Sequence record: NC_028957.1
From: Escherichia phage vB_EcoM_VR26
DNA: 64,000 nt
Reading direction: 5' to 3' (one strand)
In this document: piece after piece, positions 7,797-29,886 of the stretch
How the letters are laid out: the number at the start of each line of letters is the position of its first letter
How positions within the stretch are numbered: the stretch's first letter is position 1
Notes under the pieces: model-generated
Databases searched by the model: none
The model's input: only the letters and a program-made list of their open reading frames with translations
Told to the model about the DNA's origin: nothing
Program-made: the position numbers and the translations under genes

Positions 7797-7973
7797 TTAA
7801 ATATTATAGAACGAGCGATGCAACCGTTTAAATTGACGAATCATCTTTTTGGTAGGACGAGTATACAATCCCACACAGGTGGCCATAAACTGGTCAGTAG
7901 GACTTCCCTTGATAAAAAGTTTCCAGACCTTACCACCATTTAACTTTTCAGTATAGACTAATTCAGTTTTCAT
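7797..7973 (-). CDS. hypothetical small basic protein (58 aa), below ORF-track cutoff
   Basis: Own translation: MKTELVYTEKLNGGKVWKLFIKGSPTDQFMATCVGLYTRPTKKMIRQFKRLHRSFYNI; ATG overlaps upstream stop as TAATG. Confidence 0.45.
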   Translation of the reverse strand: MKTELVYTEKLNGGKVWKLFIKGSPTDQFMATCVGLYTRPTKKMIRQFKRLHRSFYNI

Positions 7974-8242
7974 TAAACAATCCTAAAACAAGGGTATTCA
8001 CATTCAACGTTACCATTATCAATTATCATATACTCTGTGATACAAGTCCATGACCCTTCAATTTCTATGGTATCAAAAAGGTATTCATCTGTTTCAACAA
8101 CGTCCCAAACATTACATTTAACATCAGGGTCAAAACGTTGTCTTAACGCCTGGATAACATCGCCATTTTTAAATCCTGTGTCTTGAAGCTCTTTCATAAA
8201 ACCTGATTGAGCAGCATGAATATTAACAATTTCTAAAAACAT
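7973..8242 (-). CDS. hypothetical protein (89 aa)
   Basis: ORF track. Confidence 0.45.
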   Translation of the reverse strand: MFLEIVNIHAAQSGFMKELQDTGFKNGDVIQALRQRFDPDVKCNVWDVVETDEYLFDTIEIEGSWTCITEYMIIDNGNVECEYPCFRIV

Positions 8243-8433
8243 TAAAAGGCCTCATCAGAATAGCGAAGTTGAGCTTCAAGCCAATGAATATAATCTGCTG
8301 CGGCAAAAATTAAAGCCGATTCTTCATCGGGTAACTTACGAGAATCCGACAGCTCGTAAAGAGAATGTTCAATTAAACGACCTTTATGTCGACCTACTTC
8401 AATTTTGGTACTCATACCCAAACTCCATATCAA
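8242..8433 (-). CDS. hypothetical protein (63 aa)
   Basis: ORF track; 1-nt overlap with downstream ORF. Confidence 0.4.
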   Translation of the reverse strand: MIWSLGMSTKIEVGRHKGRLIEHSLYELSDSRKLPDEESALIFAAADYIHWLEAQLRYSDEAF

Positions 8434-8531
8434 TTAAATCATTGTTTGAAGGTTCATTATACTCTATTTCGGAATCGTTGTAAACCGGTTCCTCTGGCTC
8501 GACAGTTTCCCATCGAGCGGTATACCATGGC

Positions 8532-8840
8532 TTAACGGTCACACCAATAACTACTTACTTCAAAATCAGGCTCACCGTCGTCCCAATACCAAGGACCAAC
8601 CGGATGCCAATCGCCATGCTTATCTTCTTCATATTCTTCAGATTCAAGCCCGACATATTGCCATTGGACTTCATAAGCAGTGCCACCAATTACAACCGTG
8701 TTTTCGCCGTACGGGTTAGCAACAGCAAAGTCAATACCTTCTTCTTTCGCCAGGGCTACCATGTATTCATAGAGTTTATATTCCAGGTCGTCTTCTGTAC
8801 CGTCACCTAGAAAAATGGTCTGTTCGTTTAATTCAATCAT
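8532..8840 (-). CDS. hypothetical acidic protein (102 aa)
   Basis: ORF track. Confidence 0.45.
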   Translation of the reverse strand: MIELNEQTIFLGDGTEDDLEYKLYEYMVALAKEEGIDFAVANPYGENTVVIGGTAYEVQWQYVGLESEEYEEDKHGDWHPVGPWYWDDGEPDFEVSSYWCDR

Positions 8841-9025
8841 AATTCCACCATAAATTCAAATAGCTGGTCACGTACACAAGTATCAGTCCAACCCCATTCG
8901 TTGGCTTCTTCTTTTAACCAATCCGGGAGATTTGCCAATACGGTTTCTTTACTAGGCGCAGGAGTATCAAACTCTCTTGCAAACTCTCTTGCGCAGGTTT
9001 CATAAGCTGTATCAAATTCGGTCAT
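8837..9025 (-). CDS. hypothetical protein (62 aa)
   Basis: ORF track; 4-nt overlaps on both sides. Confidence 0.45.
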   Translation of the reverse strand: MTEFDTAYETCAREFAREFDTPAPSKETVLANLPDWLKEEANEWGWTDTCVRDQLFEFMVEL

Positions 9026-9189
9026 TTAAAGTTCCAGAATGAAGCACCAACCAGAAATAAAGGCCAACAAATCATAGACGTCAGCCACCAACAAAAATCA
9101 CCTGCACCAAAATCATCTAATTTAGCTAGGGTCTTAGCATACCCAATACCAATGATAATATACAAAACACCCAACATTAATTCAATCAT
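9022..9189 (-). CDS. hypothetical small membrane protein (55 aa), below ORF-track cutoff
   Basis: Own translation: MIELMLGVLYIIIGIGYAKTLAKLDDFGAGDFCWWLTSMICWPLFLVGASFWNFK; ATGA overlaps with nrdC stop upstream and next ORF start downstream. Confidence 0.5.
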   Translation of the reverse strand: MIELMLGVLYIIIGIGYAKTLAKLDDFGAGDFCWWLTSMICWPLFLVGASFWNFK

Positions 9190-9449
9190 TTGAAATATTC
9201 TCGCAGTTCAGTGAATCCGCCAATATGACTTCCGTCAGGAGCAAACACTTGTGGCATAGTCAAACCAATTTGAGATTCGCGACCAAGTGCAGCCAGGAGT
9301 TGAGCAATCTTCTCATCATCAAACACACCTTTTTCTGGCATGACGTTGATGAATTCGTAAGGTTGTTTTTTAACATCCAAAAAACGTTTTACATTATCGC
9401 AGAATACACAGCGATGGATAGATGAATCATAACCATATACTTTAAACAT
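9186..9449 (-). CDS. nrdC: Glutaredoxin/thioredoxin NrdC
   Basis: 87 aa; MFKVYGYDSSIHRCVFCDNVKRFL...IGLTMPQVFAPDGSHIGGF matches T4 NrdC from memory. Confidence 0.9.
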   Translation of the reverse strand: MFKVYGYDSSIHRCVFCDNVKRFLDVKKQPYEFINVMPEKGVFDDEKIAQLLAALGRESQIGLTMPQVFAPDGSHIGGFTELREYFK

Positions 9450-28033: not shown

Positions 28034-28060
28034 AATATTTTCCTCATTGATTGTGGGACC

Positions 28061-28090
28061 ATTATGTCATAGCCCCATTTGGTTGTACAC
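28061..28090 (-). promoter_or_regulatory. T4-type early promoter
   Basis: GTGTAC -18- CATAAT. Confidence 0.45.
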
Positions 28091-28092
28091 AC

Positions 28093-28743
28093 TTATTTTT
28101 GTCTATTATAATATTTCAATTCAGCGGCGCGACGTCTTTCCATTGCTTCGTCACGAGAATCACCATAGTAAAGTTGGATTTCTTTATGATTAACAGTAAT
28201 ATATGATATCCATTTACCTCTGTCTTTTCTAAACTTGACACCTGTAATTGGACCAGGTGAATCTTTTCGGGTATCCTGGTCAAATGACTGTATTGATGAT
28301 GAAGCCCATTCGCAAGTTTCTTTACTGTATAGCTTACATGAATTTATCCGATTAATGCTTGTACCTGCTGGACGAATACCCATATCTTCAACAAAATTCA
28401 AATAACCAGTTTTTCCCTTTGGTAGCCACCTATCACATATTTGTACACCAGCGCCACCATACTGCTTCCAACGATGATGGTTAGGATTTGTACACCTTTC
28501 AATCATGGCAGCATACGATGAATATGTAGGTTTGTCAGAAATAAATGAATAATGATATTTCTGACAGCCGCATGATTTGGTTTTACCTGATTTTATACGA
28601 GCGGCGGCTGTGACAAACTCTTTACCACAATGACAAATACAATTCCATTTAGTAGAAACTCCAGCGGTTTTATATGCTACCGAAACAAATTTGATTCCAT
28701 TAATAATTTTACCAGTCAAATCTTCTAATGGTCTTCCCATCAT
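28093..28743 (-). CDS. HNH homing endonuclease with zinc ribbon and C-terminal AP2-like DNA-binding domain
   Basis: WNCICHCGKEF...KSGKTKSCGC then ERCTNPNHHRWKQYGGAGVQICDRW core, then KFRKDRGKWISYITVNHKEIQLYYGDSRDEA AP2-like tail. Confidence 0.75.
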   Translation of the reverse strand: MMGRPLEDLTGKIINGIKFVSVAYKTAGVSTKWNCICHCGKEFVTAAARIKSGKTKSCGCQKYHYSFISDKPTYSSYAAMIERCTNPNHHRWKQYGGAGVQICDRWLPKGKTGYLNFVEDMGIRPAGTSINRINSCKLYSKETCEWASSSIQSFDQDTRKDSPGPITGVKFRKDRGKWISYITVNHKEIQLYYGDSRDEAMERRRAAELKYYNRQK

Positions 28744-29705
28744 TCATCCTTTTTGAATGGTTTAATTAAATGCTGGTTAGCCTTAAAACGTTTAATATAA
28801 TCGTCATGACCTAAAGCATTATACATACTTATAATTTTACCATAATTTTCATATGCGAAGGTGCGGAACCATCCAGAAGTAATGGAGGTGCAGACTTTTT
28901 CCAGAGCCATATGGAAGCTATGGCTTGCAGGGATAATAAAATCATTAGGAACCTGTGAACGCTCCAGAGCGAGTACACATGCTTCTTCATAAACCCCTGC
29001 CAGTTTAATAACATCAGGGAGTGCTTCAAATTTTTCGCGTGAGGTCATGACTTCTGAATCATCCTTCATATAGAACTTATATGCGGGCTTATCAGCAAGC
29101 GCCACGGCCTCGTGGATGGAGTCATGGTCAAGGGTATAGATTGTATCATTAAAGAAAGTTTTCTTGCCCACGTCTAGTTTAGGGTGGCTATATGACAGTG
29201 TTTCTGCCTGGCGTTGTTGCATAATTTTCTGCAGTTCATCATTAAGAACAACACCCTTATTGCGAAGGTAATTAATATGACTCATGGTCTTCAGGAAGAA
29301 TGGATTGTTCTTCAGGTAACGATGAGATAATTTAATTGCCAGACAAATATCAGGAGTCGCCCAGTAAAAACCTGTAAGACGGTCCTTTTTAATATGATTT
29401 TCAGCATATTTCAGGAGACGATAACTTGAGGTGAAATCTTCGTCTTGAAGCTCGCCAGTAATTTCTCGTACGTTGGTCAGGGCACGGACAATATAAGCTT
29501 CAAAATAGGTTTCTTTGCCATTGTACATACATTTAAAAGCTTGGACATCAGGGTTATCCACAGGAACATGAGCACCGAACATACGTGCTTTAAAGTGGTT
29601 CCATGAGCCTTGGTCGGCAATGAAATCCCAATCAGAGTTTTCAATTTTCTGACTTTCAATCAGACCAGCGTTATGTAATGCACGAGAACCAATAACTAAC
29701 ATCAT
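28740..29705 (-). CDS. hypothetical protein (321 aa); weak nucleotidyltransferase-like N-terminus
   Basis: LVIGSRALHNAG...SDWDF loosely resembles GS...DxD (spacing longer than canonical). Confidence 0.5.
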   Translation of the reverse strand: MMLVIGSRALHNAGLIESQKIENSDWDFIADQGSWNHFKARMFGAHVPVDNPDVQAFKCMYNGKETYFEAYIVRALTNVREITGELQDEDFTSSYRLLKYAENHIKKDRLTGFYWATPDICLAIKLSHRYLKNNPFFLKTMSHINYLRNKGVVLNDELQKIMQQRQAETLSYSHPKLDVGKKTFFNDTIYTLDHDSIHEAVALADKPAYKFYMKDDSEVMTSREKFEALPDVIKLAGVYEEACVLALERSQVPNDFIIPASHSFHMALEKVCTSITSGWFRTFAYENYGKIISMYNALGHDDYIKRFKANQHLIKPFKKDE

Positions 29706-29733
29706 AATATTTTCCTCATTAGTAAAGACGAGT

Positions 29734-29886
29734 TACTTCATATTTTCCAAGTGCCGATTTTTTCGCTTCAATTCGTGAGGCAGCAAGATTGGCGGCCTCT
29801 AGTGAAGAAAATTGAACCACTTGAGAAGTATTCTGTCTTACTCCACCTTGCGGGTGAGTGACAAAAACAATAAGAACATTATACAT
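29734..29886 (-). CDS. hypothetical small protein (50 aa), below ORF-track cutoff
   Basis: Own translation MYNVLIVFVTHPQGGVRQNTSQVVQFSSLEAANLAASRIEAKNRHLENMK; preceded by same RBS cassette GAGGAAAATATT-ATG as the 321-aa gene. Confidence 0.35.

Follow-up and report, generated by a model that had tools for sequence, protein, structure and literature searches.

Structured RNAs that act in cis control the translation of several genes of phage T4 from long early transcripts, and those known include the pseudoknot in the leader of gene 32 and, in early transcripts, the hairpins that occlude the ribosome-binding sites of e, soc and 49. T4 also has small early accessory genes such as a-gt.2, 55.4, 49.1 and pin, and promoter-early stem-loop (PeSL) cassettes have been described for T4-type phages (Arbiol et al., 2010, PMC2839356; Comeau et al., 2014, PMC4122927). 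Among protein-binding RNA sites, those of the regulator CsrA place GGA in a short hairpin's loop, with the consensus RUACARGGAUGU obtained by SELEX, the systematic evolution of ligands through exponential enrichment, and the CsrA dimer bridges two such sites that lie 10–63 nucleotides (nt) apart, best near 18 (reviewed in PMC7652899). This report describes four short genes, labeled c1 to c4, and a non-coding element directly upstream of the gene vs.8 in a stretch of 64,000 nt from Escherichia phage vB_EcoM_VR26 (NC_028957.1), the whole of which is referred to here as the window.

The four genes are similar to T4 a-gt.2, 55.4, 49.1 and pin in size, genomic context and translational coupling, and homologs of these T4 genes occur among the other genes of less than 60 codons in the window; c1 to c4 themselves have no annotated counterpart in the T4 records examined. 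Their nearest relatives are annotated proteins of Gaprivervirus and Dhakavirus phages (VR26 gp077 and gp094; VR7ORF082c, 088c, and 137c; SP18 gp080, gp087, gp098, and gp133), which are identical or more than 90% identical, are encoded on the same strand and at the same genomic place, and show no substantive difference. The element upstream of vs.8 would be cis-acting, as are the T4 structures named above, but differs from those of genes 32, e, soc and 49 in its sequence and in its architecture, a multi-helix junction. The placement and spacing of GGA in its 3′ module are like those of the CsrA/RsmA sites of mRNA leaders and CsrB-type RNAs, whereas the hairpin of this module does not overlap the Shine-Dalgarno sequence and the large 5′ domain (helices P1–P5) is without counterpart in known CsrA targets.

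The best joint explanation of the data is that c1 to c4 are real early genes of the minus strand and that the gap at 24261–24421 represents a structured RNA leader of vs.8, a reading to which a probability of about 0.88 is assigned. The coordinates of these and other features are collected in Table 1.

Table 1. Small genes, regulatory stretches and the conserved non-coding element discussed in the text (window coordinates; aa, amino acids).
Feature	Coordinates	Strand	Description
a-gt.2 homolog	2713–2886	−	57 aa, Pfam DUF5486; fills the gap 2723–2972
55.4 homolog	5422–5553	−	43 aa, Pfam DUF5484
PHROG 3350 gene	7163–7291	−	42 aa, VR7ORF080c homolog
c1	7797–7973	−	58-aa gene, Pfam DUF7279 / PHROG 3272
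Pin-like protein	8242–8415	−	57 aa, PHROG 9092; family annotated as host Lon protease inhibitor
49.1 homolog	8399–8542	−	about 47 aa, acidic; start codon uncertain (GTG here)
c2	9022–9189	−	55-aa protein, two hydrophobic segments, PHROG 6756
Membrane micro-ORF (probable gene)	12051–12131	−	26 aa, hydrophobic, single-pass; between nrdC.6 and the next gene
c3 downstream PeSL-like repeat	14157–14226	−	promoter TGTACA-17-TATAAT at 14225–14197 within inverted repeat CAGTATGGGA/TCCCATACTG
c3	14227–14403	−	58-aa gene, PHROG 12120; stand-alone early cassette
c3 upstream regulatory stretch	14404–14493	−	strong intrinsic-terminator hairpin 14493–14474 with T-run, then early-type promoter 14455–14426
Membrane micro-gene	17712–17807	−	31 aa, PHROG 12165, VR7ORF105c homolog
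Structured non-coding element (candidate RNA)	24276–24425	−	about 150 nt, directly upstream of vs.8 (23733–24260)
c4	29719–29886	−	55-aa gene, PHROG 20278
c4 promoter and leader	29887–29943	−	early-type promoter TGTACA-17-TATCAT (29943–29915), leader TAATGAGGAAAATATTATG with ribosome-binding site

Evidence That c1 to c4 are Genes

The existence of four genes of less than 60 aa, which had been claimed from an earlier reading of the sequence (the original prediction), was confirmed: all are intact open reading frames (ORFs) of the minus strand with ATG starts, matches to PHROG families, a low ratio of non-synonymous to synonymous change (pN/pS) and corresponding RefSeq proteins. The coordinates given for the first three were exact; the fourth ORF had been ended at 29734, 15 nt short of its true stop. 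For each of the four, a Shine-Dalgarno sequence, a stop-start overlap or both are present as well, in agreement with the good ribosome-binding sites and ATGA/TAATG coupling that had been ascribed to them. The description of these genes as missed applies to an ORF track with a 60-codon threshold but not to public annotation, as all four are present in RefSeq and PHROG. Their exact protein sequences are found in NCBI as hypothetical proteins (VR26, VR20, VR7, and SP18 entries), in VR7 the syntenic places of c1, c2 and c4 are annotated as ORF082c, ORF088c and ORF137c, and SP18 gp098 corresponds to c3. Since identical proteins had already been deposited, c1 to c4 were hidden by the 60-codon threshold and not by annotators, and the finding of these genes is correct but ordinary.

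An ORF alone is weak evidence in this DNA, since 282 wrong-frame ORFs of 30–59 aa, used as a chance control, occur inside the genes of the window. A codon-usage log-odds score was trained on the long genes of the window and compared with these wrong-frame ORFs as the null (median −0.16, 95th percentile 0.087, 99th percentile 0.20); the scores of c1, c2, c3 and c4 (0.19, 0.32, 0.19, and 0.25, respectively) were all at or above the 98th percentile. Full-length matches to PHROG families covered essentially the whole profile in each case, with E-values of 1e-34 (c1), 1.1e-30 (c2), 6.9e-32 (c3), and 2.9e-43 (c4). Ungapped full-length tblastn matches were obtained to 11, 5, 1 and 2 distinct DNA sequences for c1 to c4, respectively, and against the related DNA collected the pN/pS values were 0.15, 0.06, 0.06 and 0.04, pointing to purifying selection in the proposed frame. 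The differences at codon positions 1/2/3 numbered 30/29/112 for c1, 3/1/18 for c2, 1/1/8 for c3 and 1/1/18 for c4, third positions holding 66–90% of them.

That the four are untranslated chance frames in AT-rich intergenic DNA could be argued from the abundance of short ORFs and from the codon scores of c1 and c3, which are merely near the 99th percentile of the null. This is extremely improbable in view of the full-length family matches, the ribosome-binding sites, the translational coupling and the independent annotation in many genomes, and is effectively refuted already by the substitution pattern, that is, kept frames, pN/pS of 0.04–0.15 and a bias to third positions. Frameshifted conservation in relatives, the observation by which the original prediction was to be judged, was not seen except in one case: in the lineage of JS10, CLB_P2 and CUA3 a 1-nt deletion in an A7 run shifts the frame of c4 after codon 42, affecting the last 13 codons. 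A sequencing error is an unlikely cause as several independent genomes carry the deletion. This frameshift is one of a few points that weigh against the proposed reading of the four genes. The pN/pS sums are built from non-independent pairwise comparisons of close relatives, the translation of c1 to c4 is deduced from their sequence, and both c4, frameshifted in one lineage, and c3, which is found in just a few Gapriverviruses, would thus be dispensable.

A Conserved Non-Coding Element Upstream of vs.8

A further small gene had been expected in the gap at 24261–24421. Contrary to this expectation, no ORF in the gap exceeds 32 codons or is conserved, and what occupies it instead is a conserved non-coding element with features of a structured RNA. 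Matches to its DNA occur in 963 phage records, in 650 cases at 80–90% identity, and extend over Gaprivervirus, Dhakavirus, Mosigvirus, Moonvirus, Gelderlandvirus, Kanagawavirus, Klebsiella T4-like phages and T4 itself. Among the same phages Vs.8, the product of the neighboring gene and a P-loop nucleoside triphosphatase (PHROG 1488), is just 38–59% identical. The element adjoins vs.8 whichever gene is found upstream (ip7, denV, or the genes of other internal proteins). A covariance model built from 26 copies identifies one copy in the window, at 24276–24425, with 174 bits, and also detects a tandem pair in PEi20 and partial second copies in Klebsiella phages that have an inserted ip7-like gene (see below). 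A metagenome scan for the element returned further T4-like contigs only. Unrelated GC-rich contigs that matched the pattern of the 3′ hairpin (P6, see below) were discarded, as they are about as numerous as expected by chance and were not accepted by the covariance model.

Comparison of the copies shows that the element is non-coding. Ninety-eight percent of its indels are not multiples of 3 (2% are), the variable columns are distributed as 31/25/28 by phase without 3-base periodicity, and the longest ATG-initiated frame varies from 7 to 40 codons among copies. Deposited annotations do imply a protein or upstream ORF in this place, including a 40-aa ORF in phage Ursula, an antisense ORF in a Klebsiella phage and vs.8 genes of T4 and Edwardsiella phage PEi20 with 5′ extensions through the element; in addition, a conserved AUGGAC can be read as a start and in some phages the frame that it opens ends in ATGA on the start of vs.8. 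That the gap encodes a small protein or an upstream ORF is nevertheless highly improbable, given the pattern of indels, phases and frame lengths just described, the presence of stops in every frame of the window copy and the variation of the supposed AUG (AUGGA, AAGGA, AGGGA, ACGGA), in which GGA is the invariant part. As the AUG is not conserved, an upstream ORF was rejected as an explanation of the gap.

In T4 (AF158101.6; L026 887–1546, 219 aa) and PEi20 (L032 776–1345) the deposited vs.8 starts inside the element, so that the T4 copy is currently annotated within the vs.8 coding sequence. The conserved start lies farther downstream, by about 40 codons in T4 (ATGAGAACATTT, near L026:1007) and by 16 codons in PEi20, and the annotated starts of vs.8 in these two phages are probably wrong.

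Other identities were considered for the gap. A transfer RNA (tRNA), a transfer-messenger RNA (tmRNA) or a known RNA family was ruled out by tRNA/tmRNA and Rfam 15 scans: in Rfam 15 the element had no match at gathering scores and no relevant one when the E limit was relaxed to 10 (window copy) or to 1 (five diverged copies). A promoter was rejected as well, a GTTTAC box being present without a conserved −10 element and T4 being devoid of the box. A literature search, from which the T4 genome review was left out, found no report on vs.8 or on a conserved T4 intergenic RNA.

Proposed RNA Structure of the Element

A secondary structure is proposed on the basis of 34 distinct sequences. It comprises a long-range closing helix (P1), a hairpin (P2), a helix that closes a three-way junction (P3) with the hairpins P4 and P5 in this junction, and a 3′ hairpin (P6). 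Paired cells amount to 96.4%, as compared to 86.8% in column shuffles and 22–43% when the partners are slid, and two-sided changes are observed in 13 of 21 pairs vs. 4.3 ± 1.0 in shuffles, none of 500 of which reaches the observed value. The clearest covariation is seen in P1 (CG, AU, GC, UA), in the closing pair of P3 (AU in 10, UA in 9, CG in 8, UG in 7) and in P4 (AU to GC), and the P1 helix is longer with its cognate partner than with partners taken from other phages. RNAalifold on MAFFT alignments recovered part of the structure only, because P1 and P3 are misaligned there.

A number of observations weigh against this structure or reduce the force of the statistics. The single-sequence fold of the gap is no more stable than that of shuffled sequences (z −0.03), and P2, P4 and P6 hardly vary. 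All the phages that supplied element sequences are related, and the shuffle statistics are inflated by this; the register of P3 was adjusted after inspection of the data; the covariance model used to fit the alignment derives from the same structure; and the invariance of P6 is in part a matter of construction, as many copies were collected by a pattern that requires its sequence.

Some of these features would also be expected of an element acting at the DNA level, such as a PeSL-like site of recombination or cassette exchange or a protein-binding or promoter region, instead of as folded RNA. Near-invariant P2, P4 and P6 mean that conservation alone is no proof of pairing, the element contains a −35-like GTTTAC box, and internal-protein genes are inserted at differing positions relative to it. 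In Klebsiella T4-like phages (L038 9702–10772, minus strand; also L042, L047, and L052) the 3′ module is present in duplicate on either side of an ip7-like gene, which stands between the full element and a second 3′ GGA module, an arrangement that suggests cassette insertion at this module. A role confined to DNA is distinctly unlikely in the light of the compensatory changes at P1, the closing pair of P3 and P4, of the G-U pairs, which are A-C mismatches on the opposite strand, and of the GTTTAC box, which comes without a conserved −10 element and is absent in T4.

If the element is folded as RNA, a cis-acting leader is not the only form that it might take: an independent small RNA gene or a stable RNA released by processing would be alternatives. 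Its conservation, which far exceeds that of vs.8, is in line with such a role, as is the fact that in the Klebsiella phages the full element precedes the ip7-like gene instead of vs.8. Two tandem diverged copies are found in PEi20 (L032 547–807, plus strand), the first without the 3′ module and the second without the P2 extension, so that the 5′ domain stands there as a separate copy. On the other hand, no promoter or terminator brackets the element in the window, the element always ends 16–39 nt before a start codon and most phages have one copy per genome, which together make an independent RNA unlikely. A cis-acting leader of vs.8, about 150 nt long, is the interpretation preferred for the gap.

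The 3′ Module and CsrA-Type Sites

The 3′ module of the proposed leader contains two invariant GGA motifs. The first, single-stranded and invariant within A[U/A/G/C]GGA[C/U], is found 17–19 nt upstream of the second in 33 of the 33 copies that have the module, and the second is located in the loop of P6, a hairpin of 4 bp (GCCA-AGGAA-UGGC). The spacer between them varies in sequence but its length is fixed, and the start codon follows 16–39 nt beyond the module. With GGA in a hairpin loop and another GGA within 10–63 nt and close to the best distance, the module corresponds to what has been described for CsrA sites, and a CsrA-type binding site is its most likely identity by this analogy. In the mechanism envisaged, the module would bind a dimeric GGA-recognizing protein such as host CsrA, and this binding would control the translation or stability of the downstream message. 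The proposal of CsrA itself is drawn by analogy, which has to be counted among the points against the model.

Properties of the Individual Genes

The protein identical to c1 is YP_009213914.1 of VR26. Its ATG overlaps the stop of the upstream gene (TAATG), AGGA is located 7 nt upstream of the start and a hairpin is found beyond the 3′ end of the gene (7791–7767). The protein is basic (12 K + R vs. 3 D + E) and scores 61.8 bits against Pfam DUF7279 (PF23945), for which the gathering cut-off is 24.5. The predicted fold is β-β-β-α (predicted local distance difference test, pLDDT, 85.7) with generic structural matches only. A basic domain of this type would probably bind nucleic acid or a host protein. 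Word-indexed protein homology searches with c1 and c4 gave nothing beyond close relatives, and a profile search with DUF7279 extended the family only slightly.

The window encodes two paralogs of the DUF7279 family, about 25% identical: c1 and a 74-aa gene at 14492–14716 (minus strand), which has an apparent TTG start and, as in VR7, a 29-nt overlap with the end of nrdC.11. The second paralog scores 33.6 bits against DUF7279, above the cut-off, and both share the invariant W, P-T and R residues (Pfam DUF7279, PHROG 3272 and PHROG 8921).

In c2 the start and the stop are both engaged in ATGA overlaps, with nrdC upstream and a 62-aa gene downstream. The protein is identical to AIZ02720.1 / VR20_085 and has orthologs in VR7ORF088c and SP18_gp087. 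The label of membrane protein given to it by the original prediction is supported by two hydrophobic segments with a maximum 19-residue hydropathy of 1.82, and c2 would be a two-helix protein of the inner membrane. The overlaps of c1 and c2 and the tightly packed runs of genes in which they occur are consistent with coupled translation of both within polycistronic early mRNAs, while c3 and c4 would each be expressed from an early-type promoter of their own with a strong Shine-Dalgarno sequence.

The c3 protein is identical to YP_009213931.1 of VR26 and its gene has an AAGGAG ribosome-binding site at 6 nt spacing. It is present in 76 phage records; SP18 and MN01 carry it, its other relatives are in RB49-type phages and in unrelated 45–49 kb phages of Salmonella, Klebsiella and Escherichia, and in VR7 the unrelated ORF099c occupies the same place. 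The family is very small, with 5 clusters among 1.8 billion representatives in an exhaustive HMMER search, and its invariant residues are R13, A16, I17, F20, K21, H24, G25, V31, V33, I35, Y47, and R50. The protein had been called His-rich, which is true of the window sequence, but its relatives keep just His24-Gly25. With one invariant His, a metal-binding His-rich protein was ruled out; the Cys is not conserved among the relatives. Both c3 and c4 would be small soluble domains.

As in PeSL cassettes, c3 is a single small ORF between composite terminator/promoter and promoter/stem-loop repeats, the bordering repeats recur elsewhere in the genome and the ORF is swapped in close relatives. In architecture the gene shows the pattern of PeSL-bounded mobile cassettes, and recombination would have taken place at its border repeats. 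The repeat downstream of c3 belongs to a family of five copies (families D2 and D6, 5 copies each).

Two families of 55–62-nt repeats occur in the window, one at 6304–6365, 18698–18759, 22615–22676, 29898–29959, and 36921–36982 and the other at 13583–13637, 14171–14225, 28035–28089, 33516–33570, and 34560–34614. Both represent early-type promoters with common leaders and ribosome-binding sites and mark the borders of variable small-gene cassettes; several are enclosed in inverted repeats and are therefore PeSL-like.

The c4 protein is identical to VR7ORF137c and SP18_gp133 and its gene is found in 31 phage records. A GAGGA ribosome-binding site at 8 nt spacing precedes the start, the early-type promoter lies about 30 nt 5′ of this site, and the leader, with GAGGA inside, recurs before five genes (family D4; the c4 region is in families D1, D3, and D4). 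The predicted fold is β-β-α-β (pLDDT 74.8), with generic structural matches only. Between the window and JS98 there are 17 synonymous and 2 non-synonymous changes. The homolog is unannotated in both JS98, where it is intact, and JS10, so that annotation of these small genes is uneven.

The working view is that c1 to c4 would be small dispensable early accessory proteins of the host-takeover class, encoded in variable small-gene blocks between 49/nrdC and nrdC.11 and near e.3.

Other Small Genes and Genomic Setting

Further small genes had also been anticipated in the remaining gaps, and this was borne out at 2723–2972, where a 57-aa ORF is present, as well as by at least six other genes under 60 codons elsewhere (Table 1). 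The 55.4 homolog is masked in the 60-codon track by a 74-codon ORF that starts too far upstream, and the gene of the Pin-like protein appears there as a 63-codon TTG ORF. The micro-gene at 17712–17807 has ATGA/TAATG-type overlaps at both ends. A GC-rich hairpin followed by a T-run (GGAAGC-CTAGT-GCTTCC-TTTTTTT; 2690–2725, minus strand) overlaps the stop of the a-gt.2 homolog just 5′ of gene 47 and is likely an intrinsic terminator or attenuator.

The 26-aa micro-ORF at 12051–12131 is probably a gene, although with less certainty than the genes above. It has an AAGGA ribosome-binding site, TAAT(G)ATG upstream and TAATATG downstream, and had no match to a PHROG family. Conservation of the DNA extends to about 50 records of Gaprivervirus and Dhakavirus, and comparison of the window with JS98 shows 8 synonymous and 3 conservative changes with second codon positions unchanged. 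VR7 lacks the ORF, in VR25 a 16-nt deletion disrupts it, and a hairpin inside it (12095–12077) offers a partial alternative reason for its conservation. It is annotated solely in DK-13 and RZ; its conservation in two genera and annotation in two genomes indicate that very small phage genes are still missed.

By megablast against deposited phages, the regions 7000–15000 and 28500–31000 of the window are 89–98% identical to the Escherichia/Shigella phages VR7, VR25, VR20 and SP18 (Straboviridae, Tevenvirinae, genus Gaprivervirus), which places the window in a T4-like coliphage, and RefSeq contains vB_EcoM_VR26 proteins identical to several of the small ones encoded in the window. The minus strand encodes the genes of the first 41 kb or so, which are arranged as 46-47-a-gt-55-nrdH-49-nrdC-nrdC.11-mobD-rI-tk-vs-regB-vs.8-ip-denV-e. 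Genes for tRNA-Arg(TCT) and tRNA-Met(CAT) lie side by side at 35359–35514 (minus strand). No gene was accepted by the codon-score filter in 39262–39942, which overlaps a 253-codon TTG ORF, or in 45104–46984.

Four genes of the minus strand, ip7 among them, have a near-identical 5′ end encoding MKTYQEFI(T/N)E... (24683–24732, 25011–25060, 36871–36920, and 37169–37218 in plus-strand coordinates). The shared start presumably corresponds to the N-terminal sequence, common to internal head proteins of T4-type phages, that targets them to the capsid.

Concluding Remarks

The genes c1 to c4 are of little weight in themselves, already catalogued as they are as hypothetical proteins; the main lesson that they provide is that a 60-codon ORF track under-calls the early regions of T4-like phages, the first 32 kb of the window containing at least 11 genes of 26–58 codons. 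Of more interest are the 26-aa micro-ORF, a probable gene that few annotations include, and a candidate for a new structured RNA. Whether the latter is an undescribed, widely conserved structured RNA that precedes the P-loop gene vs.8 in enterobacterial T-even-type phages including T4, and possibly a new cis-regulatory class that uses a GGA-binding regulator (e.g., host CsrA) or senses another ligand, is judged to be evenly balanced. The vs.8 leader suggests that the start codons assigned to vs.8 in T4 and PEi20 are wrong, and, as a candidate for a new phage regulatory RNA, it is open to testing in the phage family that has been studied best.

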